From an uncultured Alphaproteobacteria bacterium (GTDB lineage: Bacteria > Pseudomonadota > Alphaproteobacteria > JAAXGF01): 64,000 nt of DNA. The DNA lies in NCBI GenBank assembly GCA_964645285.1, contig CAZYDR010000001.1, positions 4,182 through 68,181 on the forward strand. Direction: 5' to 3'. Numbering within the stretch: position 1 is the first letter of the stretch; every line of letters starts with the position of its first letter. Under the pieces are notes generated by a model, which worked only from the letters and a program-made list of their open reading frames with translations, was not told the DNA's origin and ran no database searches. The position numbers and the translations under genes were made by a program. This document shows, piece after piece, positions 4,958 to 20,604 of the stretch.

Positions 4958-5281
4958 CTGGACGACGAAGCGATGGTCCTCCAGTGGTTCGAACACGCCC
5001 TCGAGGTCAATCCCCACATGCCCTTCATCCTGCAGCGCGTAGACTATTTGCGAGACAAGCTCCAGGGCGAACCGATCTGAGTGCACGCGGCGTAGAGAAC
5101 GCTGGGAAGGCGGGATTTTAGCCTCGTGAAGCGCAACAGAAGTGCCGCGAAGGCGGGCCTGGCTGGACACCTCATTGGCAGCATTGATTGTCTTCTAGAT
5201 CCCTATCGCAAAAAAAATCGCGCTTCTAGGTAGACTCGCGGATATCCGCGAAAATTAGTCCGACGGGGCAAGGACGGGGCA

Positions 5282-5944: not shown

Positions 5945-7504
5945 TTAAGCTGCCACGACTTTCGGCCATGGTGTGGCGATATGGGCTATGGCGCTATTGT
6001 CACCTGACTTGTCCCGCATAACCGCATTGGGTGTGGCGAACGAAGTTGGCCGCACACCGCTCTGCTCGACGATTATGGGACGCTTGGCCGCAATGGCATC
6101 GACAATCCCGTCGCCCAGGCGGGGATCCACGGTCACCCCCGGCCCACCGCTTACATCGATGCGCGGCTGCTGAAATGCGTTATTCAAGTTCATGTCGAAG
6201 TCGTGGATGAACAAGATCAGCTGGAATAGCGCCGGGAAGATGCGTCGCCCCCCCGAGGCGCCGAGGGCGAAGTCCGGCTTATCATCCCGGACAACCACCG
6301 TTGGCGCCATGTTCGACAGCGGCCGCTTACCCGGCGCGATGGAGTTGATACGCCCCGGCACCGGATCGAACCACAGCATGCCGTTATTGAGAATGACGCC
6401 GGTTTCGGGCAGGCGCACCATGCTGCCGAAGGTCGACATCAGGGTCTGGGTCACCACCACCATATTACCGTCGCCGTCGATCACCGAGAAGTTGGTGGTC
6501 GACGATTGCGCCTGGGAAACCTCACCCATGGTCGCCAGGCGGGTCTCGTAAGCCTGGAACAGGGAGTCCGCTACGGCCAGGTAAGTGGCGGCGTCGGGTG
6601 TTGAACCCAGATCATGGGCTTCGAGCAGCCGCAAGGCGTCAAGCAAGGTCGGGCCGGCGGACAGGCCGGGCGCCGAATGGATTGTCGCGCCGCGATACTG
6701 GCCGGTGCTGGGGGCGCAAACGGTGGTGCGGAAGTCCGCCAGATCCTCCTGCCGGAGCGGACAGCCGGCGCGGCGTGCGTCACCATCGATCTTTGCCGCG
6801 ATCTCGCCGGAATAGAAATCCTCGGGCCCGGCCACGGAGAGGCGCTTGAGGGTCGCGGCCAGGGCGTCGAGGTTGAGCCGCGGCATGCCGCCGTCCCAGG
6901 GCGCCGCCGGCGGGTAGCCACCCGGCAGATAGACCTCGGCGAGACTGGGATAGCGGGCAATGGTCGCCGCTTCGTAGGCGATGATCAGGGTGGCGTACCA
7001 GTCGATCCACATGCCCCGTTCAGCGAGCAATACGGCAGGCTCAAGGGATTCGCGCCAGCTCCGCGTGCCGAAATCCTTGAGCAGGGTGGCCATGCCCGAC
7101 ACAACGGTTGGTACCCCTACGGAATAAGGGCCGATGAAATTGCGGTCGTCGATGACCGCCGGCCAGCCAAAGCCACCGTCGCTGGTGCCGCCGGTCAGGG
7201 GATAGTCATCGGGGTTGACACCGCGCGGCGCCACGGTGCCGAAATCAAGCGACGTGACCTTCTTGCTCGAAGCGTCGAACACCTGAACAAAGCCACAGCC
7301 GCCGAGGCCGCTATTCCATGGCTCGACGATGCCAATGGCGAAACTAACGGCGACGGCGGCATCGACCGCGTTGCCGCCGGCGCGCAGCACCTCGGCGCCA
7401 ATTTCCGAGGCATCGGCGTGGTTGGTGGCGACCAACCCGCCGCGGCTGTACACCGCCGCCTTGGTTACTGCCCATTGCTCCGTGATATTTTCCGATGTGA
7501 CCAT
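5945..7504 (-). CDS. ggt: gamma-glutamyltransferase
   Basis: GGT family: the nucleophile Thr lies in SSTTNFSVIDGDGNMVVVTQTL and the GASGGRRIFPA motif is present. 519 aa. Confidence 0.85.
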   Translation of the reverse strand: MVTSENITEQWAVTKAAVYSRGGLVATNHADASEIGAEVLRAGGNAVDAAVAVSFAIGIVEPWNSGLGGCGFVQVFDASSKKVTSLDFGTVAPRGVNPDDYPLTGGTSDGGFGWPAVIDDRNFIGPYSVGVPTVVSGMATLLKDFGTRSWRESLEPAVLLAERGMWIDWYATLIIAYEAATIARYPSLAEVYLPGGYPPAAPWDGGMPRLNLDALAATLKRLSVAGPEDFYSGEIAAKIDGDARRAGCPLRQEDLADFRTTVCAPSTGQYRGATIHSAPGLSAGPTLLDALRLLEAHDLGSTPDAATYLAVADSLFQAYETRLATMGEVSQAQSSTTNFSVIDGDGNMVVVTQTLMSTFGSMVRLPETGVILNNGMLWFDPVPGRINSIAPGKRPLSNMAPTVVVRDDKPDFALGASGGRRIFPALFQLILFIHDFDMNLNNAFQQPRIDVSGGPGVTVDPRLGDGIVDAIAAKRPIIVEQSGVRPTSFATPNAVMRDKSGDNSAIAHIATPWPKVVAA

Positions 7505-7514
7505 GACGCTGCCC

Positions 7515-8399
7515 CTATTCGACGCCGGCGATGAACTCGCGCATCAACCCCATGTACTCGGCGCGCTTCTCGGCGAAGGCCATATGGGACGCGTCCTCGA
7601 TCTCCGTCACCTTGGCGCCGGGCACCAGGGCGGCGTACTCGCGGCAGGAGTGGGGAGTGGCCTCGTCGAACTCGCCGCAGGTGAACAGGGTCGGCGCCGA
7701 GATTTGGTGCAGCCGTTCGCTACAATCGTAGTCGGCGAGAGTGCCGTTGGCGGTGAATTCGCTGGGACCCCACATGGTGCTGTAGCACTCAAGATTGAGG
7801 GCGTCGAAGGCGCGCAGCACATAGTCGGGCAACGGGTCCATGCGGCAACCGTGAAGGCCGCTGAACACATCGACAGCTTCCTGGTAGGCCGGGTCGTCGG
7901 TGGTGTCCGCCGCTTCGTGGTGGTCGAGGGCGGCTCGGACCTCGGCGGGAAGCTGATTGCGATAGGCGGTGTTGTCAGCGATCCAGCGATGGGTATTGAT
8001 CAATGGGCTCGACAGCACCAAACCCGCCAAGTCCGCCGGGCGGCCAATGGCGTATTCGGCGGCAATGGTTCCGCCCCAGGAATTGCCAATGATAACAACC
8101 CGCTCAAGGCCCAGGGTACGGCGCACCGCATCGACTTCGGCAACGAAGCGCTCGACCCGCCAGTTGACCGGATCGCCGGGCCGGTCGGCCTTGCCGGCGT
8201 CGAGCTGGTCGTAAAAAACCACCCGCCGCTCATCGGCCAGATCGACCAGCGGCAACATGTACTCGTGGCTCATGCCCGGCCCGCCGTGAATGCACAGCAC
8301 CGGCACCGCACCGTCGTGGCGCCCGCCGTTGTCGCGATACCACACCCTGCCGCCTTCGACATCGATGGTGCCGGTCTGCTCCGCCTGGGGTTCTGTCAT
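7515..8399 (-). CDS. proline iminopeptidase-family alpha/beta hydrolase
   Basis: VLCIHGGPG... and nucleophile elbow GNSWGG are typical of the prolyl aminopeptidase / S33 family. Confidence 0.75.
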   Translation of the reverse strand: MTEPQAEQTGTIDVEGGRVWYRDNGGRHDGAVPVLCIHGGPGMSHEYMLPLVDLADERRVVFYDQLDAGKADRPGDPVNWRVERFVAEVDAVRRTLGLERVVIIGNSWGGTIAAEYAIGRPADLAGLVLSSPLINTHRWIADNTAYRNQLPAEVRAALDHHEAADTTDDPAYQEAVDVFSGLHGCRMDPLPDYVLRAFDALNLECYSTMWGPSEFTANGTLADYDCSERLHQISAPTLFTCGEFDEATPHSCREYAALVPGAKVTEIEDASHMAFAEKRAEYMGLMREFIAGVE

Positions 8400-8403
8400 T
8401 GTT

Positions 8404-9555
8404 TCACGCTGCCTCTCCGTTTAGCATTTTGCGGGCGATCCACTGGTACCAGCGCAGGATGGGTTCCTCCATCCAGCTCATGTAGCCCGGCGCCGCCTTG
8501 GCCGAGCGAACGCCCATGGCAATATATGGCATGCTCTCGCCGTCTTCGTCGAGGGCGCGGCTTGAATCATAGGCTTCACCGTCCGGTGCATAGCGGCGCA
8601 GTTCGCCTTCCGGCCGTACCGACCCGGCCCGGTAGCGCACCTGATCGACCCCAACCGGCCACAGGGCATAGAAACCGGCGCCGCCGGGATAGATCACAAA
8701 GGCATTGGCCGGATGGATCATGACGATGTCGAGGCTGGACACATCCTGTCCGATATCGCCGGGCTTCCAATTGACCTCTTCGATGAGATCGCGGCTGACC
8801 TGACGGTCCATGTAATAGGGCACCTGATAGCGCGTCCAGCCGTCACTATAGGTAATGTTGGTGGTGTTATGGGTCGGCGAATATGTCTCCAACGTATTCT
8901 CGTGGAGGCCCATGTGGTGATAGCCCTCCATGTTGTTCTCGTTGAAGTTCTTCCAGTTGCCCGGCCATACTTTGTCGTAGTGGTTGGTCATGGTCCAGTC
9001 GTCGGCGCATTTGTAGGGCGCGAACGCCTGATCCAGAGCTTCCACCGTCGGCGCCAACGGCGCGGCATGGTCGTCCAGGTTGACCCAGATGAGATCGTTC
9101 CAGATTTCGAGGCGAAACTTGGGCAGGCAAATCTTGTTCTTGTCGAACTCCTGGTGCCGCTCCATGTGAAGCGGCTGCACGAGCTTGCCGTCCAACTCGT
9201 AGGTCCAGTGGTGATAAGGGCAGCGGAAGCGGTTGGCATTGCCGCTCTCGCCAGGCTTGACCACCAGCATGTAGCGGTAGCGGCATACGGTGGAGAGCGC
9301 CCGGATTGCCATGTCCGGGCCGCGCACGATGACCAGGGGCTCGCCGACCAGTTCCACCGTAAAGAAATCACCGGGACTACGGATTTCGGATACGTGGCCG
9401 ACGTCGATCCATTGCTTTTTCCAGATGGTCTCGACCTCGAGATCGAAAAACGCCTGGGAGGTGTAATGGGCAGGCTCCATGGTACGCATGCGATCGACCG
9501 GCAGGTCGAGATAGGACTTAAGCGACCCCAGAAGGGTCGTGAGGCCGGGTTCCAT
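8404..9555 (-). CDS. Rieske (2Fe-2S) ring-hydroxylating oxygenase alpha subunit, atypical first cluster motif
   Basis: Rieske motif 2 is CPYHHWTY. The mononuclear Fe motif ENNMEGYHHMGLH is present. Motif 1 reads CRYRYM instead of the canonical CxHRGM. Confidence 0.8.
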   Translation of the reverse strand: MEPGLTTLLGSLKSYLDLPVDRMRTMEPAHYTSQAFFDLEVETIWKKQWIDVGHVSEIRSPGDFFTVELVGEPLVIVRGPDMAIRALSTVCRYRYMLVVKPGESGNANRFRCPYHHWTYELDGKLVQPLHMERHQEFDKNKICLPKFRLEIWNDLIWVNLDDHAAPLAPTVEALDQAFAPYKCADDWTMTNHYDKVWPGNWKNFNENNMEGYHHMGLHENTLETYSPTHNTTNITYSDGWTRYQVPYYMDRQVSRDLIEEVNWKPGDIGQDVSSLDIVMIHPANAFVIYPGGAGFYALWPVGVDQVRYRAGSVRPEGELRRYAPDGEAYDSSRALDEDGESMPYIAMGVRSAKAAPGYMSWMEEPILRWYQWIARKMLNGEAA

Positions 9556-9599
9556 AATATCCTCCGGATGGCATCGGTATATGTCAGAACTATAAGCCG

Positions 9600-9624
9600 A
9601 GACCGCATCGTCGAACCAGCTTTC
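9600..9624. repeat. 25-nt direct repeat copy A (24/25 identical to 14077..14101), a duplicated 3' end of the DUF1244 gene
   Basis: AGACCGC[A]TCGTCGAACCAGCTTTC. On the minus strand this encodes ESWFDDAV, in frame with and just upstream of the Rieske gene ATG. Confidence 0.7.
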
Positions 9625-9732
9625 ACGACGGCGGCAATGGTTGACCTTTCAATCGCCGCCGATGTTGCCGTACCATGAGGCGCGGTCGTCGTCTTCGCGC
9701 CGCATAATCCTGATGCAACGGTAGGAACCACT

Positions 9733-10656
9733 ATGAAACTGGGAATCAGTCTGCCCGGAACCGACCTTGGCCCCGACCCTTTGGCGCTGCGGGACTTCAC
9801 CCAGCTCTCCGAGGAACTCGGTTACGACCATTTGGCGGTCTACGAGAACACCCTGAACATCAACCCGGTGAGCCTGCCCGACTGGGACGGCGTCGAGGAG
9901 CCCGGCAGTTCCTACCACGACCCCTTTGTCCTGCTCGGTTATCTAGCGGGGCAGACCACATACATCGAGCTCTCGGTGCAGGTGCTCGTGCTGGCCCAGC
10001 GTCAGACTGCCCTGGTCGCCAAACAGGCGGCCTCGCTGGATTTTCTGAGCGGCGGGCGGCTTCGCCTTGGCGTCGGGATTGGATGGGACGAGAAACAATT
10101 TATCGCCCTTGATGCGGATTTCTCCAGCCGGGGCGCGCGCTCGGCGGAACAGATCGATGTCATGAAGGCGTTGTGGCGCGACCAGTACGTGGATTTCGAC
10201 GGCAAATGGCACCGCATTCCCGATGCCGGGATCAACCCTCGGCCGACCGGCAATTCCCTGGAGGTCTGGTTCGGCGGCAAGCACGACAACGTGCTGCAAC
10301 GCATTGCCCGGATCGGTGACGGCTGGATGCCGCTGCACCTTGCCGCCGCCGATGACGCCCCGCGTGAGATCGCCCGGCGCGAGATCGAGACCCTGATGGG
10401 CTACGCCGAGACCAACGGGCGCGGCCGTGACGAGATCGGTATCGACGGCTGGGTTTCCATGGGCGCCGGGACCGCCGACGACTGGCGCCGGGAAATCCTC
10501 GGCTGGCGCGAGCTGGGCGCCAGCCATATCACCCTCAACACCGCTTTCGATGTGGGTCACCACAGCCGTATTGCGGGGCGGAACTTCGACGATCACGCCG
10601 CCGCCATACGGGAATACATGGCCGTGGTGAAGGATCTGTTCGAAACCTCCAACTGA
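9733..10656 (+). CDS. LLM-class (luciferase-like) F420/flavin-dependent oxidoreductase
   Basis: MKLGISLPG...LRLGVGIGWDEKQF...WFGG is the characteristic TIM-barrel LLM family. Confidence 0.75.
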   Translation: MKLGISLPGTDLGPDPLALRDFTQLSEELGYDHLAVYENTLNINPVSLPDWDGVEEPGSSYHDPFVLLGYLAGQTTYIELSVQVLVLAQRQTALVAKQAASLDFLSGGRLRLGVGIGWDEKQFIALDADFSSRGARSAEQIDVMKALWRDQYVDFDGKWHRIPDAGINPRPTGNSLEVWFGGKHDNVLQRIARIGDGWMPLHLAAADDAPREIARREIETLMGYAETNGRGRDEIGIDGWVSMGAGTADDWRREILGWRELGASHITLNTAFDVGHHSRIAGRNFDDHAAAIREYMAVVKDLFETSN

Positions 10657-10675
10657 GCGATAGAAGGTAGAAAAG

Positions 10676-12676
10676 ATGTCCGTAACCCACTTGGAAATCC
10701 TCGACCGTCAGCCGTATGAGAACGGGCGATCCTTCGGCGAGGTCGGGCCCTTTGAGCGTATCGACGCCATCGCCCATTATGCGGTCGATCCGGGACATGC
10801 GGCGAACCAGGGCATCGTCGATCTCGCCCTGGCGGAACGGAACGACGAGGGCCGAGTCCGGTTCAGCGGTGATATGACCTTGCTGATGCCGCGGCAAGCT
10901 GATCGGGGCAACCGGGCGCTGATCATGCATGTGCCCAACCGCGGTGGGCGGCAGCTGTCGCGGTTGAATCTCTACCCGCGGGAAAGCCCGGTTTCCGCGG
11001 CCGTGGAGCCGGGCGACGGCTTCCTCTTTGAGCACGGCTGGACTGTCGGCTGGGCGGCATGGCAGTGGGACGTTCCACGATCCCCCGAACGGGTGCGGAT
11101 CGGCCTGGCGGCCCCCGAAGTACCCCTGGCGGCGCGTCAACCGGACGGCCGTATGCAGCTCAGACTGCAGATCTTCCGCTCGAGTTCCAGTCTGCCCCTG
11201 ACCGATCAGCACGTCGGCCCCCACGGCGATCACCGCCTGATCCGAAGCGCCGATGTGAACGACGCCGAGGCCACGCTTTTGGTGCGCCGTGGACCCTATG
11301 GCGAAGCGCGCACCATTGCGCGCGACCGCTGGCGCTTCGCCCGGGCGGTTGACGGCCAGGCGGTCGAGGACGACGGGCACATCTGGCTGGACGGCGGGTT
11401 TGAAGCCGGCCTGACCTACGATGTGTTGTACACGCCGCTGAACTGCCCCGTGGTCGGCGCCGGACTGCTGGCGACCCGAGACCTAGCGTCGTATCTGCGC
11501 TACGATGAGGGCGCGCCCACGGCCGGCGCGATCAACCATGCCATCGCCGAGGGCCAGTCCCAGTGCGGCCGCTTCCTGCGGACATTTCTCCATCTCGGCC
11601 TCAACAACGACGAAGCGGATCGGCCCGTATTCGACGGCGTGCTCGCCCATATCGCCGGCGGCCGGCGCGGCGAGTTCAACAACCGCCATGGTCAACCCTC
11701 GGTACAGCCGACACCGCTATTTGGCCATCTGTTCCCCTTCGCCGACGATCCGCAAACCGACCCCTTGACCGGCCAGACCGGTGGTCTGCTGGACCGCCTG
11801 CGGCAAAACGGCGGGGTGCCCAAGATTTTCTACACCGACACGTCGTCGGAATACTGGCGGGGCGATGCCTCGCTCAGCCACACCGATCTTGCGTCGGGCG
11901 GTGACTGTGCGTTGCCCGGCGAGGTCCGGCGTTACCTGTTCTCCTCGACCCAGCATAGCGCCGGCGAGGTGCCGCTAACCAATCAGACGGTATTCGGCGG
12001 CATTGGGACGGTCCCGGTGAACATTGTCGATTACCGCCCGCTCTATCGCGCCGCCCTGGCCAATCTGCTCGCCTGGATCGCCGATGGCTATGAGCCGCCG
12101 GCGAGCGCTTACCCCCAGGCATCGACGGGCACTCGCGGAACCCGGCGTGACGTCATGGCAACCCTGTCCGCCATTCCCGGTCTCGCCCTGCCCGACGCCG
12201 ACGTGCTGACAACCATGTATCCCCTCGACCTTGGGGCGTTTGCCGACAGCGGCATCGCCACACCGCCGGCGAAGGTCGGTCCAACGGCCTATCCGGACTG
12301 GGTCTCGTCGGTCGATGCAAATGGCAACGAAGCAGCCGGCATTGCCATGCCCGACATCACCGTGCCGGTGGCCACCCACACCGGCTTCAACCCGCGCCAT
12401 CCGGACATCGGCGGGCCCGGCGAGATGCTCGAATACATCGGCTCGACAGTGCCCTTCGCGCTGACCGAGGAGGCCCGCGCCGCGGCCAACGACCCGCGAC
12501 CCTCCCTGGCCGAACGTTACGCCGGCCGCGACGACTATCTCGCCCAGGTCCGACAGGCGGCACAGGCCCTGGTCGGCCAGCGCTACCTGCTGGCCCAGGA
12601 CATCGATGTCTGCCTTGAAATTGCCGCCGAGCGTTATGACGCCTGCCTGGCCGAGCCGTCAGCGGATCGGGCATAA
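10676..12676 (+). CDS. conserved hypothetical protein, putative alpha/beta-hydrolase-domain protein of unknown function
   Basis: The blocks HYAVDPGHAANQGIVDL, LIMHVPNRGG and DGFLFEHGWTVGWAAWQWDV recall the family annotated as 'alpha/beta hydrolase domain-containing protein'. No catalytic assignment is possible from sequence alone. Confidence 0.5.
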   Translation: MSVTHLEILDRQPYENGRSFGEVGPFERIDAIAHYAVDPGHAANQGIVDLALAERNDEGRVRFSGDMTLLMPRQADRGNRALIMHVPNRGGRQLSRLNLYPRESPVSAAVEPGDGFLFEHGWTVGWAAWQWDVPRSPERVRIGLAAPEVPLAARQPDGRMQLRLQIFRSSSSLPLTDQHVGPHGDHRLIRSADVNDAEATLLVRRGPYGEARTIARDRWRFARAVDGQAVEDDGHIWLDGGFEAGLTYDVLYTPLNCPVVGAGLLATRDLASYLRYDEGAPTAGAINHAIAEGQSQCGRFLRTFLHLGLNNDEADRPVFDGVLAHIAGGRRGEFNNRHGQPSVQPTPLFGHLFPFADDPQTDPLTGQTGGLLDRLRQNGGVPKIFYTDTSSEYWRGDASLSHTDLASGGDCALPGEVRRYLFSSTQHSAGEVPLTNQTVFGGIGTVPVNIVDYRPLYRAALANLLAWIADGYEPPASAYPQASTGTRGTRRDVMATLSAIPGLALPDADVLTTMYPLDLGAFADSGIATPPAKVGPTAYPDWVSSVDANGNEAAGIAMPDITVPVATHTGFNPRHPDIGGPGEMLEYIGSTVPFALTEEARAAANDPRPSLAERYAGRDDYLAQVRQAAQALVGQRYLLAQDIDVCLEIAAERYDACLAEPSADRA

Positions 12677-12744
12677 GTCATACCGTAGATCAGCGTGCCG
12701 GCATCGACTTACTCACCGGGCAATCCGCTGTCCAACCACGCCGA

Positions 12745-14058
12745 TTAGCCCGTACCGGGCTTCTCCAGCCGCGCCATCACCTGCTTCGCACTTGCTATGA
12801 GGGGCGCGAACCAGGAGCGGCCGCTATAGAACGGCATGGTCTTGAACGGCAGTTCGTCGAACGCGGTCTCGCTGCCCGGCTCTCCCATCAGCCTGAGGGC
12901 AACCTTGTTGCCAAGATGGGTCCCGGTGGGCAGGCCGCCGCCGTTCATGCCGAGGACGTAATAGACGCCGTCGTGGCGGCCGATATGGGGCAGCGTATCG
13001 AAGGTCAGCCCCAACTGCCCGTGCCAGTAATGGCTCAAACCGACATCGGCGAGTTGCGGGTGGATCTCGCACATCTCGCCATGCAGCGCCGTGGCAATAC
13101 GGCGGTCGCGGTAGAGCGGGCGGATCGTCTGACCGAGAAACAGGATCCGCGGCTCGTCCGGGGCGATGCACCACGAATGGAAGTTGTTGCGTACATCGAG
13201 GTTGACGCGGCCGCTCGGGAAGAGCTCCGCCAGGGTCTCTTGGGGCAGCGGCTCGGTGGCCACCATATGGGCGTTGACCGGGATGATGCGGCGCCTGAGG
13301 AAGGGCGTTTCCTTGCCGATGTAGCCGTTGGTCGCGACCACCACGTCGCCCGCCTCGATCGTCCCCCGGCTGGTCGCCACGTCGAAGGTTTGTGCCCGTT
13401 GCTCGATACCGAGGACGCGGGTATGGTCAAGGATCGTCGCGCCCGCCGCCTCGACCCGGTCGATCAGGCCATCGACCAGCAGCGCCGGATGACAGGCGCC
13501 GGTGCCGGGAAACGCGACGCCGCCATAATAGAAATCCGACCCGGTCTCGCGCCGCTTGTCCTCGGGGCCGATGACATAGCCCTCGACGCCGGCGTGCTCC
13601 CGCATGAACTCCAGATCGCGGGTCTTGTACTCAAGCTGCTCGCGGTTGTAGGCCCAATAGACCCGGCCGCACTGGCGGTACTGGCAATGGATTTGCTCGC
13701 GTTCGATCAGCTCGGTGACATATTTGAAGGCGGCGTGGGTCTCGCGATATATGCCGGCCGCCCGCTCCATGCCGTGGCGCTTGGCCAGATCGACGAACGA
13801 GGCCATGGGCGCCACACCGACATAGCCGTGGTTTCGCGAGCTGGCGCCGAAGCCGGGCGCCTCGGCGTCAAGAACAACCACCTCGCGCCCATGGCGGGCC
13901 AGGGTCAAGGCCGCCGACAGTCCGGTGAACCCGGAGCCGACCACCACCACATCGGCCTTGGCCGGCAGCATGGCGTCGGCGCTCTCGGGCCGCCGCGGCG
14001 CTGCTTCCCACCAATAGGGTTCCTCCTTGAATCCGGAGGCGAATACCGATCCGGTCAT
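12745..14058 (-). CDS. FAD-dependent oxidoreductase (DAO / glycine-D-amino-acid oxidase family)
   Basis: Rossmann dinucleotide motif DVVVVGSGFTGLSAALTLA near the N-terminus. The start is reassigned to MTGSVF, which has a GGAG RBS; the longer ORF start at 14193 is an Arg-rich overextension. Confidence 0.75.
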   Translation of the reverse strand: MTGSVFASGFKEEPYWWEAAPRRPESADAMLPAKADVVVVGSGFTGLSAALTLARHGREVVVLDAEAPGFGASSRNHGYVGVAPMASFVDLAKRHGMERAAGIYRETHAAFKYVTELIEREQIHCQYRQCGRVYWAYNREQLEYKTRDLEFMREHAGVEGYVIGPEDKRRETGSDFYYGGVAFPGTGACHPALLVDGLIDRVEAAGATILDHTRVLGIEQRAQTFDVATSRGTIEAGDVVVATNGYIGKETPFLRRRIIPVNAHMVATEPLPQETLAELFPSGRVNLDVRNNFHSWCIAPDEPRILFLGQTIRPLYRDRRIATALHGEMCEIHPQLADVGLSHYWHGQLGLTFDTLPHIGRHDGVYYVLGMNGGGLPTGTHLGNKVALRLMGEPGSETAFDELPFKTMPFYSGRSWFAPLIASAKQVMARLEKPGTG

Positions 14059-14074
14059 GGTGCTGCTCCTATCC

Positions 14075-14407
14075 CTAGACCGCGTCGTCGAACCAGCTTT
14101 CGCCGGCCTCCCCGTGTTCGGCGATGGAGTCTTTGTAGCGTTGCTGAGTTTCCGGCGCCGCATCGGTCTGGTGGTTGGCCTTCCACTCGGCATAGGTCAT
14201 GCCGTAGATCAGCGTGCGGGCATCGTCGTAGCTGATCTCGTCGCCATGCTCGGCGGCCGCCGCGCGATACCACTTGGACAGGCAGTTGCGGCAGAATCCG
14301 GCGTTGTTCATGACGTCGATATTCTGCACGTCGGTGCGCTGGCGGAAGTGATGGACCATGCGGCGGAACACAGCGGCCTCGACTTCAGTGCGGGTCTGAT
14401 TGTCCAT
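14075..14407 (-). CDS. DUF1244 family protein
   Basis: The blocks FRRMVHHFRQRTDVQNIDVMNNAGFCRNCLSKWY match the DUF1244 family. Its last 8 codons are duplicated at 9600..9624. Confidence 0.7.
   Translation of the reverse strand: MDNQTRTEVEAAVFRRMVHHFRQRTDVQNIDVMNNAGFCRNCLSKWYRAAAAEHGDEISYDDARTLIYGMTYAEWKANHQTDAAPETQQRYKDSIAEHGEAGESWFDDAV
14077..14101. repeat. 25-nt direct repeat copy B (inside the 3' end of the DUF1244 gene)
   Basis: AGACCGC[G]TCGTCGAACCAGCTTTC; partner of 9600..9624. Confidence 0.7.
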
Positions 14408-14471
14408 TTATTATCTCCCTCTGGATTGGTTCACTCGACACGGCGCATGTATCGATCCCGGTTTATTGTTA

Positions 14472-14515
14472 GCGCCGACAATTCATGGAATCGATTTCGT
14501 GGTCAAGGTCGAACC
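14472..14515. repeat. solo copy of a ~44-bp IS30-like element terminus
   Basis: GCGCCGACAATTCATGGAATCGATTTCGTGGTCAAGGTCGAACC matches 20526..20569 at 41/44 in the same orientation. The partner copy abuts an IS30 transposase remnant. Confidence 0.6.
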
Positions 14516-14531
14516 CGGAACCCAAGGGGTA

Positions 14532-14864
14532 TCACGCCGATGGCACCAACAGATAAGGCGCGGCCCCGTCGCACTGTGACACGGAAACCCTGCTATTGAT
14601 CTCAAGCGGAGCCCGGGACGCGCCCATAAGCTGGACCTCGGCGGCGCCATGGAGTTGGACCATGGCGATATAGAACGGAACCTCGCCCGTCGGGCTATAG
14701 ACCGGGGATCGGTCCACGCGGGTGACAGCCGTCACGGAACCGCTCGCAGGGAGTGAAACGGGTTCGCATTGTTCGGCGCCACAGCCCGCGCAGGCATAAC
14801 GGCCGCGCAGCCGGTGGGTGCCGCAACTCTGGCAGCGATCGACAAGAAGGCTGTGGTCCGACAT
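14532..14864 (-). CDS. DUF35 Zn-ribbon/OB-fold protein (thiolase-like aldolase partner)
   Basis: A CxxC...CxxC zinc ribbon (CQSCGTHRL...CAGCGAEQCE) followed by an OB-fold tail. It sits immediately downstream of an SCP2-thiolase-like gene, as is usual for DUF35. Confidence 0.75.
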   Translation of the reverse strand: MSDHSLLVDRCQSCGTHRLRGRYACAGCGAEQCEPVSLPASGSVTAVTRVDRSPVYSPTGEVPFYIAMVQLHGAAEVQLMGASRAPLEINSRVSVSQCDGAAPYLLVPSA

Positions 14865-14867
14865 TGG

Positions 14868-16004
14868 CTAGGCCTCCAGAACAATCGAGACATGGGACGA
14901 AAACACGCCGCCATCGGCGTGGAGGAACGCGGCAGGCCGGCGGGCGGCCCCAGTCGCATCGTCCTCACGAGCCGCCCGGACGATCTCGACCAGATGGGCC
15001 AGACCGCCGGCGACGCCGCTATGGCCGTAGGACAACAGGCCGCCATGGGTGTTCAGCGGCAGGTCGCCGTCGCCATCAAAGCGGCCCTCTTTGGCGTCGC
15101 TCGTCGCCTGCCCGGCGGCGCTGACGCCGCACGCCTCAAGCAGTATGGCCAGGGTCACCGTGAAGCTGTCGTAAATCGCGACGCGGCCCATATCCGCCAT
15201 ACGCCGGCCGGCGGTGTCCAGGGCGGTGCGTGAGGCCCGCACAGCACCCTCGGCAATATCCGCCGGGGCGGCGCTCATGTGCTGGTGGGTGTGTGACTGA
15301 CCGGTTCCGGTGACCCGCAGCGCCGGGCCACGGGCGGGAGGCGTGGCGGAGACCACAACCGCCGCGCCGCCATCAGAGACCGGACAGCAGTCGAGCAGTT
15401 TCAGGGGCGTGGCAATGGGCTTGCTCGCCATGACCTCGGCGACCGTGATCGGCTTCGAGAAATGGGCGCCGGGCGTCGCTGCCGCATGGCGGCGCATGAG
15501 CACCGCGAACTCGGCCAGATCGACCTCGGACAAGCCCGTCCGGTGAAGGTAGGCCGAGGCGACGAGGCCGTAATAAGCCGGAACGGAAGCACCGTTCGGC
15601 GCCTCGTGCAGGGGGTCACCGACCTCGGACAGGACCCGCGTGGTCGCCGCGCCGGTTTGCCCGCTGAGGCGATTCTCGCCGGCGACTACGAGGATGGTCT
15701 CCGCGGCGCCGGACGCAATCAGATGGCGGGCTAGGGCGACCATGGCCAGCCCCGAGGCGCCGCCAACCGAAATGCCGTAGGCGCAGCTGGGCTGCAACGC
15801 GAAGGCCTCGGCGAAGCGCGTGGCGGGCATGAGGTGCGGCGCCGTAGTCGCGTAGCCGACAAGCAGGCCGTCGATCTGCCGGCGCTGCAAACCGCTGTCG
15901 GCCAAAGCCGCGCTGGCGGCCCGGGCCTGAAGATCGAGGGCGGAGGCCGGGCCAAGCTTGCCGAATTCGGTCAGCCCGACGCCGCAAATATAGGCGTCCC
16001 TCAT
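14868..16004 (-). CDS. thiolase-like lipid-transfer protein (SCP-x/Ltp-type aldolase-thiolase)
   Basis: MRDAYICGVGLTEFGK... is a thiolase fold lacking the canonical biosynthetic thiolase motifs, like Ltp2-type proteins. Confidence 0.8.
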   Translation of the reverse strand: MRDAYICGVGLTEFGKLGPASALDLQARAASAALADSGLQRRQIDGLLVGYATTAPHLMPATRFAEAFALQPSCAYGISVGGASGLAMVALARHLIASGAAETILVVAGENRLSGQTGAATTRVLSEVGDPLHEAPNGASVPAYYGLVASAYLHRTGLSEVDLAEFAVLMRRHAAATPGAHFSKPITVAEVMASKPIATPLKLLDCCPVSDGGAAVVVSATPPARGPALRVTGTGQSHTHQHMSAAPADIAEGAVRASRTALDTAGRRMADMGRVAIYDSFTVTLAILLEACGVSAAGQATSDAKEGRFDGDGDLPLNTHGGLLSYGHSGVAGGLAHLVEIVRAAREDDATGAARRPAAFLHADGGVFSSHVSIVLEA

Positions 16005-16393
16005 GGCTGCGCCTTGTCACTGTCGGGCGTGAAGCTGCCGGCGATGGCCGCTTCGCCGTCCTCCCGTTCGACGGTCAAGCGCAGGGCGCCGGCGGCGTCA
16101 GGCTCGAGAACAACCCGAACCGCATCGCCCACGAAAATCGGCTTGAGAAACCGGACCTCGGCGCGGCCCGCGAGGAAGGCGGTCTCGCCGACAAAGCGGC
16201 GCAGCTCGGAAAGCGCCCGCGCCAGAGAGAGCGTTCCGTGGGCGATAGGCCGGCCCATGGCCGTGGTGGCGGCGAAGTCCGGGTCGAGATGGATCGGGTT
16301 CATGTCGCCGGTCAGGGCCGCGTAGGCCTCGGTGCGCGAGCGGTCAACTCGGACCCAGTCGGTGACATGGCGCGGCGCCATTATTTCGCCCAT
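16001..16393 (-). CDS. MaoC-family (R)-hydratase hotdog protein
   Basis: The MaoC dehydratase signature LTGDMNPIHLDPDFAATTAMGRPIAHG is present. Confidence 0.75.
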   Translation of the reverse strand: MGEIMAPRHVTDWVRVDRSRTEAYAALTGDMNPIHLDPDFAATTAMGRPIAHGTLSLARALSELRRFVGETAFLAGRAEVRFLKPIFVGDAVRVVLEPDAAGALRLTVEREDGEAAIAGSFTPDSDKAQP

Positions 16394-16767
16394 AGGAAAC
16401 TCATTTCGCCCTCGACAACCATCTCGCTATCCGATGTCAGGGTCAGGCCGAAGGTGACCCAGGGCCGGCCTTTCTTACGCTCCTTTGCGATGCACCGGGC
16501 ACGGGCCATGAAGCGGTCCCCCGGCGCCAGAAGCCGCCCCACGGTCAGGCTCTGGCCGGCATGGATATTCCCCGGCGGGCGCGGCGAAATGATGGAAATA
16601 TAGGCGCGCATCATCATGCCGATAGTCATTTCGACACGGCCATCAAAGTCGCCCATGTCCGGAAAGGCTTTACCTAGGTGATCGCGCGCGTCGTCGGTCA
16701 CGACCATCTCGCGTGTACCGATCTCGTGGCCGACCTGGAAATCGTCGAAAGTGAGAACTTTGCTCAT
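16381..16767 (-). CDS. hotdog-fold protein (MaoC N-terminal-like hydratase partner subunit)
   Basis: 128-aa hotdog-fold protein overlapping the MaoC gene start; this pairing is typical of heteromeric ChsH1/ChsH2-like enoyl-CoA hydratases. Confidence 0.65.
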   Translation of the reverse strand: MSKVLTFDDFQVGHEIGTREMVVTDDARDHLGKAFPDMGDFDGRVEMTIGMMMRAYISIISPRPPGNIHAGQSLTVGRLLAPGDRFMARARCIAKERKKGRPWVTFGLTLTSDSEMVVEGEMSFLWAK

Positions 16768-16834
16768 GGTACCGCCTGCCGCTCAACATCGGTGTCGAGC
16801 GCTAGAGTGTATCCCGATAATGTAGGAAAATGCT

Positions 16835-18478
16835 CTAGGCGTTGCCCTCGCCGTGAACCACCCTGCCGCCGACAATGGTGGTGTCCACCTGAACCTCCTT
16901 AAGAGCATCGATCGGAATCTCGAATGGGTTTCGGTCGAGTACGATGACGTCGGCCAGCTTGCCGGTCTCGATCGAGCCCTTGCTGTCTTCCTCGAACCCG
17001 GCGCGGGCCGAGAAGGTCGTATAGAGCCGGATGCCGTCCATCACGGTGAGCGCTTCCTCGGGGCAGATTAGGCGGCCGCTCCGGGTCTCGCGGGCGACAG
17101 TGCACCAGATGCTCCACCACGGGTTCAACGCCTCGGGCTCGGTGCCCATGGAATCCGAATTGCCCGGCGGCATGAAGCCTTCGTCCAGCAGAGTGCGATA
17201 GGGCGCCGCCTTGTCGCCCTGGTTGGCGGTCTCGAGCCAGCCGTCGCCATACCAGCCTAGCGAACTGTAGGGCGTCGGCACCGGGATGATTCCCAACTCC
17301 TTGAGTCGGGCCAGCCCTTCGGGCCAATAGTCGCCGGCGAAATGTTCGATGCGGTGGCGATGATCGGCGCGCGGCGCCGCGTCCAGGGTGGTGCTGACCG
17401 CCTCGATGGCCATGGCCTGAGCGTCACGGGAGATGGCGTGCATCATCATGCGGATGCCGGATTTGTGAGCGCCGGCAACCAGATCGTTCAACTCGTCCTG
17501 GCTGAGGCGCATCCATTCCTGGTGAACGCCGTCGGCATCGCGCCCGGCGCCGTCGATGAACATCTTGGCGCTGCCGAATTTGAGCCAGTCGTTGCCGAAG
17601 CCAGTCTGCATTCCGAGGTTGATCAAGCCTTCGAGATCAACCGTGCGATACATTCCCCAGACGCAGGGGCAAAGCTGCACCCGGAGCGGCAGTTCGCCGT
17701 CGCGGTAGAGGTCCTGATAAATTCGCGTGCTCTCGGGCCAGCTCAGGAACTCGTGGATGCCGGTGATGCCGAACGCGGAGGCCTCGCCTAGGGTCTCGCG
17801 AATGGCGCCCTTGAGGGTGTAGTAGGGCCACGGGTTATGTTTGCGAAAAATCCAGTCGATGGCCTCGTGAATGATGCCCGTGGGCTCGCCGCTCGCCGTA
17901 TCGCGAACGATGCGACCGCCGTTGGCGACCGCGTGGAGTTCGGCGTCGGTCGGCGAATCCCTGGTTATGCCGGCCATGGCGAGGGCCTTGCCGTTCAACA
18001 TCTGACAGTGGGCGCTGTAGCGAACCATAAGCGGATGATCCGGCGCCGCCGCGTCGAAATCCGCCCGGCTCGGCGAGTTGCCGTCGGCCTCCAGAGGGAA
18101 ACGGCCCTGGCCGATGATCCACCGACCTTTGGGCGTGCGCGCAGCCTCGTCCCTGACCCAGGCGAGAATGGCCTCGCGGGTGTCGCCACCGCCCGAGACG
18201 CCGACATATTCGACCGGCGGGATATGGCAGCTCCCGGCCAGCTTGGTGTGGGTCGCCGTGCAATCGAGATGGATGTGGGTATCGATGAACCCCGGCAACG
18301 CGACGCGGCCCTTGAGGTCGATCACCCGCGTCTGGTCACCGATCAAGGCGTCCATGTCGGACCCGGCGCCCAGCGCAACGATGCGCTCGCCGTTAAAGGC
18401 GGCCGCTTCGACAGTCGTGCCGGCGGCATCCATGGTGACAATTTGGCCGTTCGTCAGAACCATATCCGCAGTCATCAT
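16835..18478 (-). CDS. amidohydrolase-family metal-dependent hydrolase
   Basis: The N-terminal metal-binding HxH lies in LPGFIDTHIHLD; 547 aa, amidohydrolase_3-like architecture. Confidence 0.8.
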   Translation of the reverse strand: MMTADMVLTNGQIVTMDAAGTTVEAAAFNGERIVALGAGSDMDALIGDQTRVIDLKGRVALPGFIDTHIHLDCTATHTKLAGSCHIPPVEYVGVSGGGDTREAILAWVRDEAARTPKGRWIIGQGRFPLEADGNSPSRADFDAAAPDHPLMVRYSAHCQMLNGKALAMAGITRDSPTDAELHAVANGGRIVRDTASGEPTGIIHEAIDWIFRKHNPWPYYTLKGAIRETLGEASAFGITGIHEFLSWPESTRIYQDLYRDGELPLRVQLCPCVWGMYRTVDLEGLINLGMQTGFGNDWLKFGSAKMFIDGAGRDADGVHQEWMRLSQDELNDLVAGAHKSGIRMMMHAISRDAQAMAIEAVSTTLDAAPRADHRHRIEHFAGDYWPEGLARLKELGIIPVPTPYSSLGWYGDGWLETANQGDKAAPYRTLLDEGFMPPGNSDSMGTEPEALNPWWSIWCTVARETRSGRLICPEEALTVMDGIRLYTTFSARAGFEEDSKGSIETGKLADVIVLDRNPFEIPIDALKEVQVDTTIVGGRVVHGEGNA

Positions 18479-18981
18479 TCCCAGTCCTTTCTTGCCTTTG
18501 AACAGAGCAATGTCTTGGCGTCATAGGGCCGCCGATAACCTGGACAGCGCCCACGACCTTCCGCTCCGCGGCATAATCGGTGACAGCCATCAGATACGAC
18601 CGCTACCCAGGGTGTCGTTGACCTAAATTAAGTTCGAGGGTGGTGATGCGGCCTGATGGATGGCCCGCGCTCTAGTCGAGACCCAATACGGTCTCTTCAA
18701 TGAGAAAATCGACCACCGCCTCAAGCGCCTCGTGGCCGTCGGCGCCGCCGGTCTTGGCGGTTTAGTTCCTTGACCCCGAACCGACTTTGTCACAACGACC
18801 ACTCTGCGCTACCATACTCGACTTCGCCCGCATACCAGCCCGACAGTTGGCACGGCGGGGAGGCAAACCGTTATTTCACGTTCGAGCACGACGGCGAAAA
18901 GCGACCCAGTACTGGCTTTATTTTGCAAGCCCCTTCAGCAACAAGCGGCCTTGCCCGCGGAAACCGTGATGGAGTTGAATC

Positions 18982-20460
18982 GTGACGGCAAAGAAACCGA
19001 ACGTCATCCTGATATTCGTCGATAATCATCCCGCGAATATGCTGGGATGCGCCGGCAACGACGAGGTTCACACGCCACATCTCGACAGCCTTGCGGCGCA
19101 AGGCACCCGGTTCAGCGACGCCTATTGTCCGAACGCCATGTGTTCGCCGTGCCGGGCATCGGTTCTGACAGGACTGATGCCTTCGCAACACGGCATTCAC
19201 ACCTGGCTGGATGACGCCGTCATCGACACCTGGCCGGAGAAATGGAATGCCATCGCGGAATTCTATACCCTGCCTGAACGCCTCGTTGAGGAGGGATACG
19301 ACACCGCGCTTATCGGAAAGTATCACCTTGGCATTGCCGACGAACCGCAGAATGGATTCAGGGAGTGGGTGACCTTACAGATCGGTCATGTATTGTCATT
19401 CTACGACAACGCGATGATCGACAACGGCAAGCGGGTTACCCATCCGGGGCATTCGGTCGATTATTTTACACAGCGCGCCGTTGACTATATCGGGGATCGC
19501 GGCAACGCTCCGGACCAGCCCTTCTTCATGTTTCTGACGTATCCGGCGCCTTACGGGCACTGGCCTTCCATCCAGGGCGAGCCGAACAATCGCTTCGCCG
19601 AGCGCTATCGCAATACCCCGTTCAATTCCGTGCCGCGAGAGGGGGTCAGCGGGAGTCTGGTTAACTGGTTGCTGGTCAGGCACGACAAAGTGCCTGGAGA
19701 AAAAGACCATGGTTATGTCGAGGATATGATTCAGATTCCCAACGACATGCCAACATTGCGAAACTACTACTCGCAGATGAGCATGGTCGACGAAGGCGTT
19801 GGAAATGTCCTGGCCGCGCTCGACAACAGCGGCCTGAGCGAGGATACGCTGGTCATCTATACGTCCGATCATGGCATGTCGCTGGGCGAGCATGGGTTCT
19901 GGGGGCATGGCGAGGATACCTGGCCGTCCAACACGTTTCGTGAAGCCAACCATATTCCGCTGATCGTAAGACCGCCCGGTGGCCCGGGCGGCGACCGCGT
20001 GGAACAACGCTTGGTCGGCACCACGGACATATTCGCCACCATTCTGGATTATTCGGGCGCCGCCTCGCCCGGCAAGGATGAAACAGCGTCGAGAAGCCTT
20101 CGCCGATTGATCGAAGGGTCCGAGTCTGATTGGAACGACGCCGTGTTCATGGAACAGGAGGAAACCCGGTCCATTCGGACTCCCGAATGGCTGTTCATGC
20201 GACGGTTCGAGCCGACCTCGTACAATTTCGATCACGAGCTGTTCGATTTGACGCAGGACCCCGACGAACGAAACAATGTCGCCAATGACCCTTCATACCG
20301 GTCGGTCGTCGACGAGTTGTCAGCCCGAATAGAGGCTTACTTTGAAAAATATTCCGACCCCAAATGGAACTTGTGGAAGGGCGGTACCTTGAAGTCAAAC
20401 TCGGGCAGACCATTTCTCTGGAAAGAAGCGTGGGGAGAGAATTGGGAACCAGGATTCTAA
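18982..20460 (+). CDS. sulfatase-family protein (formylglycine-dependent)
   Basis: The CxPxR formylglycine motif CSPCRAS is followed by GLMPSQHG, and the N-terminus PNVILIFVDN is typical of the alkaline-phosphatase-like sulfatase fold. Confidence 0.85.
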   Translation: MTAKKPNVILIFVDNHPANMLGCAGNDEVHTPHLDSLAAQGTRFSDAYCPNAMCSPCRASVLTGLMPSQHGIHTWLDDAVIDTWPEKWNAIAEFYTLPERLVEEGYDTALIGKYHLGIADEPQNGFREWVTLQIGHVLSFYDNAMIDNGKRVTHPGHSVDYFTQRAVDYIGDRGNAPDQPFFMFLTYPAPYGHWPSIQGEPNNRFAERYRNTPFNSVPREGVSGSLVNWLLVRHDKVPGEKDHGYVEDMIQIPNDMPTLRNYYSQMSMVDEGVGNVLAALDNSGLSEDTLVIYTSDHGMSLGEHGFWGHGEDTWPSNTFREANHIPLIVRPPGGPGGDRVEQRLVGTTDIFATILDYSGAASPGKDETASRSLRRLIEGSESDWNDAVFMEQEETRSIRTPEWLFMRRFEPTSYNFDHELFDLTQDPDERNNVANDPSYRSVVDELSARIEAYFEKYSDPKWNLWKGGTLKSNSGRPFLWKEAWGENWEPGF

Positions 20461-20525
20461 ACGGAAACCGACGCGGATTAGGCTAGTCGTGGTTTCCAGT
20501 GAGCGTTGGAAAAGAATTTCAGGGG

Positions 20526-20569
20526 CGCCGACAATTCATGGAATTGATTCCGTGGTCAAGGTCGAATCT
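20526..20569. repeat. ~44-bp IS30-like terminus adjacent to the transposase remnant
   Basis: GCGCCGACAATTCATGGAATTGATTCCGTGGTCAAGGTCGAATC; partner of 14472..14515. Confidence 0.6.
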
Positions 20570-20604
20570 TGACATCGGAGCATGTCCGCTGTTGGGATGC
20601 CGCC

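Follow-up and report, generated by a model that had tools for sequence, protein, structure and literature searches.

Two 25-nt direct repeats, one of them the 3′-end of a DUF1244 gene, bound a 4.5-kb block of three genes next to a Rieske oxygenase gene in an uncultured member of the marine Alphaproteobacteria, from a clade known only from metagenomes. Such a layout raises the question of whether the repeats mark the ends of a mobile insertion or are the trace of some other event. The locus was analyzed within a 64,000-nt stretch of one contig, hereafter the window. In the reading that we favor, with a probability of about 0.75, the 25-mer ahead of Rieske is the least-decayed tip of a DUF1244 pseudogene fragment (psi1), which together with a second fragment (psi2) represents the neutral scars of old recombination in a hypervariable slot starting at the DUF1244 stop codon, with nothing at the locus being currently mobile.

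The distal repeat extends into a decayed copy of DUF1244

Copy A (AGACCGCATCGTCGAACCAGCTTTC, 9600-9624) and copy B (AGACCGCGTCGTCGAACCAGCTTTC, 14077-14101) were identical at 24 of 25 positions in direct orientation, as the initial annotation had described, and the match could be extended to 26/28 over 9597-9624 versus 14074-14101. With up to three mismatches allowed, the window holds these two copies only, which rules out a widespread short repeat, and none of 100 dinucleotide shuffles yielded a match, which rules out a chance pairing of two 25-mers. Among all loci compared, the motif was confined to DUF1244 ends and the orthologous psi1 site, so that its occurrence at many unrelated loci, which the initial annotation had named as a result that would speak against its interpretation, was not observed; the exact 25-mer was not found in viral contigs. 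An assembly artefact was excluded as well, since the same layout with all of its pieces appeared in 17 contigs from independent assemblies and samples.

Translation confirmed that copy B comprises the last eight codons of DUF1244 (ESWFDDAV), to which the first base of the stop codon can be added, and that copy A encodes the same octapeptide followed by TCG (Ser). Copy A lies 45 nt ahead of the Rieske start codon (ATG at 9555) and shares its frame, with no stop between. The homology between the two copies stops right after the stop codon. The frame shared by copy A and Rieske is a coincidence, because the spacing between them differs by one base in the lineages L104, L098, and L202. Given that the copy A frame has no upstream start codon, has a stop 13 codons upstream of ESWFDDAV, and is not conserved, an N-terminal extension of, or a fusion with, the Rieske protein was ruled out. 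Downstream of psi1, the 41-nt stretch ahead of Rieske includes that gene's own ribosome-binding site (GGAGGA); the flank of Rieske includes GCTTATAG..., and GCTTATAGTTCTGAC... lies ahead of the gene. A regulatory RNA or terminator at the repeats was likewise excluded, as an Rfam search near them gave no match and searches for tRNA, tmRNA, and promoter-like or terminator-like sites found none.

Similarity to DUF1244 is not limited to copy A. The whole fragment, psi1 (9597-9698), is ~100 nt long, lacks the 5′-end, occupies most of the spacer between the LLM-class oxidoreductase and Rieske genes, and covers DUF1244 nt ~176-333 with an internal deletion; its two parts (Table 1) are colinear, on the same strand and, in this window, in frame, with ~55 nt of the gene deleted between them. 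The psi1 hits by nhmmer fell at DUF1244 profile positions 176-237 and 305-331, in agreement with a global alignment, and the older part reached a local alignment score of 20, compared with a mean of 10.2 (sd 1.7, maximum 17) for 3000 random window segments (empirical p < 3e-4). Detection by the protein profile was marginal (E ~0.1), and the DNA-level tests were decisive. The older part translates as DDDRASWYG..D*KVNH versus YDDARTLIYG..EWKANH in the gene, and the translation of psi1 (...DDDRASWYGNIGGD*KVNHCRRRESWFDDAVS) contains an internal stop and no start codon, with codons 1-58 missing and frame relations that vary among lineages. Judged from its sequence, psi1 is best described as a non-functional DUF1244 pseudogene fragment without a 5′-end. 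The duplication originally proposed therefore stands in part: copy A does duplicate part of the DUF1244 3′-end and marks an old recombination junction, but it is the tip of a ~100-nt pseudogene and not a 25-nt target duplication.

Table 1. Genes and DUF1244-derived pieces at the locus (window coordinates).
Feature	Position	Strand	Annotation and remarks
Rieske oxygenase alpha subunit (GbcA-like)	8404-9555	-	PF00355 + PF00848; first gene of Rieske-Abh1-GGT
Repeat copy A, 3′ tip of psi1	9597-9624	-	DUF1244 nt 305-333 plus 1-3 nt; TCG replaces stop
Older, more decayed part of psi1	9637-9698	-	DUF1244 nt ~176-237, ~69% identical
LLM-class (F420/FMN type) oxidoreductase (LLM)	9733-10656	+	PF00296, TIGR03619; transcribed away from Rieske
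Abhydrolase_10 protein (Abh10), 666 aa	10676-12676	+	PF20091; native stop 12674-12676
psi2, 42-nt DUF1244 fragment	12670-12711	-	Gene nt 178-219, codons 60-73; 37/42 to 14189-14230
DAO-family FAD oxidoreductase (FADox)	12745-14058	-	PF01266; 16 nt downstream of DUF1244
Intact DUF1244 gene, 110 aa	14075-14407	-	PF06844 E 1e-32 + translation; last 25-28 nt (14074-14101) = copy B

A second DUF1244 fragment lies within the block

Inside the supposed insertion, between Abh10 and FADox, a second piece of DUF1244 was detected by nhmmer (E 1.8e-5, profile 178-219) and named psi2. Both scars start at DUF1244 nt ~172-178. As the 5′ limit of psi1 is fuzzy by ~8 nt and only two scars bear on the shared limit, the chance that this agreement is a coincidence is ~6%. 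No similarity, as a shared element end would show, was found between the sequences upstream of psi1 and upstream of psi2. The first 6-7 nt of psi2 (GGCATAA) overlap the native Abh10 stop, GGCATA(A) occurring at DUF1244 nt 213-219 as well as in the native end of Abh10 (CGGTCATAA in L198, CGGGCATAA in the window). The bases shared by both partners at the psi2/Abh10 joint, the one junction that could be resolved, are those expected of a microhomology junction. Separately, 42 nt of the spacer upstream of DUF1244 (14472-14513, GCGCCGACAATTCATGGAATYGATTYCGTGGTCAAGGTCGAA) recur at 20525-20566.

The enclosed genes have different histories in related lineages

Four further lineages (L202/L203, L104, L098-100, and L111/L122) carry psi1 at the corresponding site, as shown by alignment; their DNA differs by 10-17% from that of the window, and the scar is therefore old. 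Copy A matched the local DUF1244 end at 24/25 positions in the window, 21/25 in L202, 19/25 in L098, and 17/25 in L104, and in the other lineages it carried 3 to 5-6 differences in 25 positions; psi1 has thus drifted in the manner of neutral or surrounding non-coding DNA. The marks of a DUF1244 pseudogene were thus all present, namely homology beyond the 25-mer, a non-functional frame, and a shared position with non-coding-like divergence. The second fragment, psi2, is present in L202/L203 with one substitution, and absent from L198, L104, and L098. L202 is colinear with the window over 5947-18645 at 90% identity.

LLM, Abh10, and Rieske are conserved together in L104 and L202, and Abh10 adjoins DUF1244 in every close lineage. 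Comparison of the Abh10 C-termini showed that homology to L198 runs through Abh10 to 12676, and on the other side, homology to L104 and L198 ends at 14074 and 14073, respectively, exactly at the DUF1244 stop codon. Between these two breakpoints, at the stop codons of DUF1244 and Abh10, lies a slot whose content depends on the lineage: FADox and psi2, nothing, GMC and TauD, YDMC, or NnrU. The slot is empty in L198, where DUF1244 is followed by 20 nt and then the Abh10 stop, so that FADox plus psi2 (12677-14072) is an insertion relative to L198, with GGCATA shared at the junction. FADox orthologues sit elsewhere in L018 and L199, in the latter on the opposite side of Abh10, and the slot fillings of L104, L098, and L199 have left no scar. 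In more distant lineages, the arrangement is FGase-GCS2-DUF1244, 0 to 4 variable genes, and GapR-GMC. One distant LLM homologue (L201, 67% identity) has unrelated neighbors, with neither Abh10 nor DUF1244 among them.

These data do not agree with the initial view that the 4.5-kb segment was inserted as a unit, since Abh10 and LLM stay with Rieske, the position of FADox is variable or empty, and psi2 lies inside the block. The empty site is known for the inner FADox-psi2 part only (L198), not for the whole block. The arrangement that the initial annotation had suggested looking for, DUF1244 abutting Rieske in relatives without the segment, was found at 0 of 22 orthologous Rieske loci (8 from genomes and 14 from metagenomes), and in the two most closely related genomes, an Amidohydro_2 gene lies beside Rieske in place of DUF1244. 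Nor does copy A form the left edge of the accessory region, which in the window runs from ~5.1 kb to ~20.8 kb. The 5′ and 3′ halves of DUF1244 did not differ in divergence between lineages, which speaks against an imported 3′ half of the gene and leaves no independent trace of one.

The block lacks the signatures of a mobile element

Pfam annotation confirmed the gene content originally listed, including the lack of an integrase. No integrase or tyrosine or serine recombinase was found among the Pfam-annotated called genes from window position 1 to 24.4 kb, and the Pfam gene tables contained no transposase within the block; the sole mobile-element trace was the remnant of an IS30 transposase (20519-20821) at a distance of 6.4 kb, which was recognized by NCBIfam while Pfam gave nothing. 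Inverted matching of the inner ends to each other reached a score of at most 11, versus 9.0 ± 1.6 in the null, and the repeats, at 25-28 nt or longer, exceed the 2-15 bp of transposon or IS target-site duplications, so that transposase, terminal inverted repeats, and short direct repeats are all missing. A GC profile was computed, and the GC3 comparison of segment and flanks suggested at the outset revealed no anomaly, with 0.79-0.84 in the three enclosed genes versus 0.78-0.85 outside. No plasmid matched 9556-12744, which argues against a plasmid-borne cassette. Of the features of an integrase-driven island, direct repeats are present at both ends, but the distal one is part of a longer decayed copy, and a recombinase gene, an empty site for the whole block, gain or loss as a unit, and a distinct composition were not found.

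Origin of the scars

Most likely, old events of duplicative recombination within the DUF1244 3′ half left these scars at a hypervariable locus, a case of ordinary genome plasticity. Within the reading of psi1 and psi2 as old recombination scars, we put the following course of events at a little under even odds. The ancestor would have carried DUF1244, ~41 nt, and then Rieske. DNA containing a DUF1244 3′ half (from ~nt 176) together with the Abh10-LLM cargo would have recombined with the resident gene, either through single-crossover (Campbell-type) integration of a circle or through homology-anchored illegitimate recombination, which would have regenerated an intact DUF1244 and stranded the displaced 3′ half (psi1) beside Rieske. 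A later similar event may have put FADox directly behind DUF1244, leaving psi2, and a deletion between GGCATA microhomologies may then have trimmed psi2 against the Abh10 stop.

In single-crossover integration and homology-facilitated illegitimate recombination, foreign DNA is anchored on one homologous segment. The observed order of intact gene, cargo, and truncated anchor duplicate is what such processes predict, as is microhomology at the non-homologous joint, and no dedicated recombinase is needed. The mechanism here is deduced from the end product alone, and the anchor would be only ~156 nt. Several observations weigh against this account, among them the equal divergence of the two DUF1244 halves, the small number of scars behind the shared 5′ limit, and the slot fillings that left no scar. 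The presumed ancestral state, an intact DUF1244 directly upstream of Rieske, occurs in no sampled relative, and psi1 is unevenly diverged, with the inferred ancestral tip ~88-96% identical to the gene versus ~69% for nt 176-237. Such unevenness is not predicted by a single displaced copy and therefore needs a gene-conversion patch, two events, or chance.

Alternatively, psi1 could be the remnant of a second complete DUF1244 gene, brought by a donor with the Rieske-Abh1-GGT block or produced by tandem duplication, whose 5′ half was lost when LLM-Abh10 was inserted or by deletion, without any relation to the entry of the cargo. Consistent with such a remnant, psi1 spans codons 59-110 or more, and the Rieske gene that follows it carries a ribosome-binding site of its own. 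The ~69% identity of nt 176-237 would fit a diverged foreign copy, and the region is a patchwork whose blocks occur elsewhere in different combinations. We nevertheless regard this origin as unlikely, given that DUF1244 lies next to a Rieske orthologue in no sampled genome, that the near-identical tip (ancestrally 22-24/25) is unlike a diverged foreign copy, and that the common start of psi2 and psi1 would be left to chance.

The shared start could instead mean that attachment or recombination recurs in the DUF1244 3′ half (from ~nt 176), where integrase-less catabolic cassettes are captured duplicatively, the gene being rebuilt and a 5′-less copy left each time. If so, the locus would be a cassette-accretion site analogous to tRNA-gene island hotspots, without a known recombinase. 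Genomic islands and integrative elements insert into the 3′-ends of conserved genes (tRNA, tmRNA, and sometimes protein genes), supply the gene with a new 3′-end, and leave behind direct att repeats, and several islands can accumulate in tandem at one gene 3′-end. The present locus resembles them in its succession of intact target gene, cargo, and direct 5′-less partial copy, in a cargo that varies between strains, and in two nested scars, psi2 nearer and psi1 further, as in tandem accretion. In contrast to such islands, no integrase or recombinase is found in or near the block, the composition gives no signature, the scars show age and decay, and other fillings of the slot lack a repeat. In the literature mentioning DUF1244, the gene is not reported as an attachment site. 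On balance, a dedicated site of this kind seems distinctly improbable.

Still further down stands templated filler, in which MMBIR-type template switching would have copied 28-60 nt from the nearby gene into block junctions. Every piece does lie exactly at a junction of blocks with different histories, psi2 and the Abh10 end have 6-7 nt of microhomology in common, and the template is 1.5-4.5 kb away; yet the pieces all run in one direction, colinear with the gene, two independent pieces share their start position in it, and the ~100 nt of psi1 with an internal deletion are more readily explained as a decayed copy than as one short fill-in, so we consider filler highly improbable. Insertion of LLM-Abh10-FADox as one 4.5-kb unit into the 3′-end of a DUF1244 that formerly abutted Rieske, site-specific or illegitimate and with duplication of a 25-nt target, has the geometry of an island in a gene 3′-end (an intact-gene end and a direct distal repeat, with homology ending right after the stop codon), but is largely refuted by the synteny data and retains a very small probability: the three genes are not inherited together, the repeat belongs to a longer decayed pseudogene, a second DUF1244 fragment lies within the block, the structure is common to lineages 10-17% apart, integrase, inverted repeats, and a GC3 shift are missing, and no relative has a whole-block empty site.

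Discussion

Comparative genomics of bacterial horizontal transfer has described chromosomal hotspots, flanked by conserved core genes, in which genes are gained and lost. The locus is similar to these in that a conserved frame, FGase-GCS2-DUF1244 ... GapR-GMC, holds from 0 to >10 variable genes by lineage, in that the breakpoints abut core gene ends, and in that mobile-element genes are mostly absent. It differs from hotspots in general in that the turnover has left recognizable partial copies of a flanking core gene.

The wider significance of these observations is small. If the shared start of the scars were a real site preference, it would, on evidence that is thin, point to recombinase-independent cassette capture. 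The locus illustrates that a gene block flanked by tidy direct repeats may owe them to an old pseudogene scar and not to a mobile element. For this uncultured marine alphaproteobacterial clade, it documents a hypervariable slot directly behind DUF1244, and the genes shuffled there are of the amine- and amino-acid-type catabolic kind (Rieske oxygenase, LLM, hydrolases, FAD oxidase, TauD, and GMC).

Results

On checking the sequence, we confirmed the pair of 25-nt repeats reported in the initial annotation, in coordinates, direct orientation and 24/25 identity, and found that the match lengthens to 26/28 (9597-9624 vs 14074-14101). These were the only two copies in the window at up to three mismatches, and none appeared in 100 dinucleotide-preserving shuffles. 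As described, copy B is the final eight codons of the DUF1244 gene, and copy A, upstream of the Rieske gene, carries codons for that octapeptide and then TCG, and shares a frame with the Rieske ATG; this frame relation is peculiar to the window, the copy A-Rieske spacing being one base longer in the relatives' loci L104, L098, and L202. The enclosed genes are the three originally listed, and the block contains neither an integrase nor a transposase.

Coordinates of features in the window
Feature	Position	Strand	Remarks
Sensor kinase gap	5079-5164		TPR gene/response regulator gap, ~86 nt
Rieske ATG	9555
psi1	9597-9698		decayed DUF1244 fragment
Copy A	9600-9624
LLM-class oxidoreductase (LLM)	9733-10656
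Abhydrolase_10 protein (Abh10)	10676-12676		666 aa
psi2	12670-12711		decayed DUF1244 fragment
DAO-family FAD oxidoreductase (FADox)	12745-14058	−	16 nt behind DUF1244
DUF1244	14075-14407	−	110 aa; PF06844, E 1e-32
Copy B	14077-14101
Five-gene block	14408-18647		OB-fold gene to Amidohydro_3 gene
42-nt repeat, first copy	14472-14513		spacer upstream of DUF1244
GCS2 3′-end remnant	18648-18854	−	glutamate-cysteine ligase family 2
Sulfatase	18982-20460	+	GC 0.565, GC3 0.69
IS30-family transposase remnant	20519-20821	−	NCBIfam NF033563, E 3e-12; profile 93-153 of 267; GHWEGDL
42-nt repeat, second copy	20525-20566		6 kb away, between sulfatase gene and IS30 remnant
GMC oxidoreductase fragment	20736-21074	+	C-terminal only (PF05199); then DUF1272, DUF1491
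Tandem array	52254-52361		9/15/18-nt units

Through comparing the DUF1244 locus with the window by repeat scan and short-word BLAST, two further pieces were found, psi2 and 20525-20566, the latter identical at 40 of 42 positions to 14472-14513. The stretch 9638-9698, beside copy A, aligns with DUF1244 nt 176-237 at ~69% identity, colinearly and on the same strand, with a local alignment score of 20 compared with a mean of 10.2 (sd 1.7, maximum 17) for 3000 random window segments. psi2 is identical at 37 of 42 positions to 14189-14230 (DUF1244 codons 60-73) and sits between the Abh10 and FADox stop codons, within the supposed inserted segment. A DNA profile built from four DUF1244 genes independently detected 9698-9637 (profile 176-237), 9626-9600 (305-331), and 12711-12670 (178-219, E 1.8e-5). 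Translated in the copy A frame, the spacer reads ...DDDRASWYGNIGGD*KVNH....ESWFDDAV, its counterpart in the DUF1244 gene being YDDARTLIYGMTYAEWKANH...ESWFDDAV. Because this adjoining spacer is itself DUF1244-like, copy A is the tip of a ~100-nt pseudogene, psi1, which lacks the 5′ end and carries a ~55-nt internal deletion; psi2 is a second DUF1244 scrap. Both begin at DUF1244 nt ~172-178, and both lie downstream of the intact gene in its orientation, with cargo genes between. Divergence along psi1 is uneven, the tip having ancestrally matched at 22-24 of 25 positions and nt 176-237 at ~69%.

An alignment of the LLM-Rieske spacer from the window, L104, and L098-100 gave 89% mean column identity, with the copy A position conserved. 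Set against the DUF1244 end in its own genome, copy A matches at 24/25 in the window (GAAAGCTGGTTCGACGATGCGGTCT), 21/25 in L202 (GAAGGCTGGTTCGACAATGCGATCT), 17/25 in L104 (GAAGGCTGGTATGGCGATGTGTTCT), and 19/25 in L098 (GAAAGCTGGTTTGACTTCGCGGTCT). Its drift resembles that of the surrounding non-coding DNA, the best-preserved copy happening to be the window's, and the psi1 scar is older than the divergence of lineages that are 10-17% apart in the DNA they share. psi2 is common to L202/L203, with one substitution, and is there 35/42 identical to their own DUF1244 gene.

The window belongs to a metagenome scaffold (FUCH22-1_SAMN18055975, scaffold_534, 64.5 kb); an assembly artefact was ruled out, since the layout and all pieces recur in 17 contigs from other assemblies and samples, namely those encoding identical Rieske or DUF1244 proteins. 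Distant clade members (DUF1244 70-76% identical) have the order FGase-GCS2-DUF1244-(0 to 4 variable genes)-GapR-GMC, and closer lineages have a bigger accessory region beginning exactly at the DUF1244 stop codon. Window positions 5947-18645 are colinear with L202 at 90% DNA identity. Reading from DUF1244, the order is FADox-psi2-Abh10(−)-LLM(−)-psi1-Rieske-Abh1-GGT in L202/L203 and the P0121 contig; GMC-TauD-Abh10(−)-LLM(−)-psi1-Rieske in L103-105 (DUF1244 95% identical); YDMC-Abh10(−)-CapK_C(−)-LLM 5′ remnant-psi1-Rieske in L098-100 (94%), of which the short contigs L111 and L122, lacking DUF1244, cover only the stretch from Abh10/LLM remnant to Rieske; and NnrU-Abh10(−) in L199/200 (85%), where FADox lies beyond Abh10. 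In L198 (94% at the protein level) the slot is empty, the Abh10 stop codon following DUF1244 after 20 nt. Homology with the window ends at 14074 and 12660 in L104 and at 14073 and 12676 in L198. Since homology breaks at those points, the variable slot is bounded by the DUF1244 and Abh10 stop codons, and FADox and psi2 (12677-14072) are inserted by comparison with L198. At the Abh10/psi2 junction, GGCATA is common to DUF1244 nt 213-219 and the native end of Abh10 (CGG-G/T-CATAA), a microhomology joint. In L103/L104 (Logan assemblies), both the Amidohydro_3 gene and the GMC gene are broken into several short ORFs (L103 3974-4759, 7572-9193), either real pseudogenes or assembly frameshift errors.

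The initial annotation had proposed a 4.5-kb three-gene insertion into the DUF1244 3′ end, to be checked by alignment and composition. DUF1244 directly abutting Rieske was found in none of the 22 orthologous loci (0/8 in one-genome-per-species contigs, 0/14 in JGI metagenomes); in the nearest two genome relatives (84-85% identity in Rieske) that place is taken by an Amidohydro_2 gene, and window homology with them breaks at the Rieske ATG. GC3 gave no signal (LLM 0.81, Abh10 0.79, FADox 0.84 vs 0.78-0.85 in neighbouring and core glycolate oxidase genes). Searches found no terminal inverted repeats inside the direct repeats, no tRNA or Rfam family, and no viral or plasmid matches. Nor do the three genes behave as a unit, as slot contents differ among relatives and FADox moves or is absent.

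Several other features were observed nearby. A 42-nt direct repeat (GCGCCGACAATTCATGGAATYGATTYCGTGGTCAAGGTCGAA, 40/42) has its DUF1244-side copy also in L103-105 and L202. The IS30 remnant is truncated on both sides, without a Pfam match; the adjoining GMC fragment is probably left over from the core GMC gene behind DUF1244-GapR in island-free relatives. The GCS2 remnant, parted from DUF1244 by the five-gene block, is 85-91% identical to relatives that have an intact GCS2 either adjoining DUF1244 or a short way upstream of it. The sulfatase gene, with GC and GC3 clearly below its surroundings (GC3 0.78-0.85), is probably the region's most recent acquisition because it is absent from this place in the sister lineage L202. 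Where L202 has a 3.2-kb PAS/HisKA sensor kinase gene, only ~86 nt remain in the window, which leaves an orphan response regulator beside GGT. The imperfect tandem array (CCTTCGCC-type units) comprises a 33-nt unit in six overlapping copies; read from the opposite strand, it probably codes for part of a protein that is acidic or of low complexity. P0034, a 158-aa DUF1244 homologue from an ENA contig, has its core tandemly duplicated internally (DVQNIDMMNLAGFCRNCLSNWFEDAA... twice).

Discussion

Two decayed, 5′-less DUF1244 copies lie in a hypervariable slot, in an old and stable arrangement. The feature is real and ordinary, and we give a probability of roughly three in four that it is an old scar left by a pseudogene at a hotspot of gene shuffling. 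The simplest mechanism giving this end product, as we infer from the end products, would be recombination of incoming DNA carrying a DUF1244 3′ segment with the resident gene, yielding an intact gene, cargo, and a 5′-less 3′ copy, possibly through a circle integrated by single crossover or homology-anchored illegitimate recombination. Abh10-LLM would have arrived first, leaving psi1 beside Rieske, and FADox later, leaving psi2, which may afterwards have been trimmed by microhomology deletion. Against this mechanism stand the uneven psi1 divergence, three other slot fillings without a scar, the postulated DUF1244-Rieske ancestor being missing from the 22 orthologous Rieske loci, and intact DUF1244 halves that show no divergence difference between lineages. 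An additional DUF1244 copy, whether paralogous or foreign, that decayed in place is an unlikely source of the fragments, and templated filler DNA at illegitimate joints a very improbable one. Insertion as a unit with a 25-nt target duplication is just as improbable, given that the repeat belongs to a ~100-nt pseudogene and psi2 lies inside the block.

Islands that insert into gene 3′ ends, with tandem accretion, leave a similar end product; we looked here for each of their hallmarks (recombinase, unit behaviour, empty site, compositional signature) and found none, and neither of the only two papers that mention DUF1244 treats it as an attachment site. That the DUF1244 3′ half might be a recurrent, recombinase-independent cassette capture site seems quite doubtful, because the idea draws on a pair of scars with starts that agree to within ~8 nt. 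More generally, the locus belongs with the chromosomal hotspots that lie between core genes and are poor in recombinases, to which it adds partial copies of the flanking gene.
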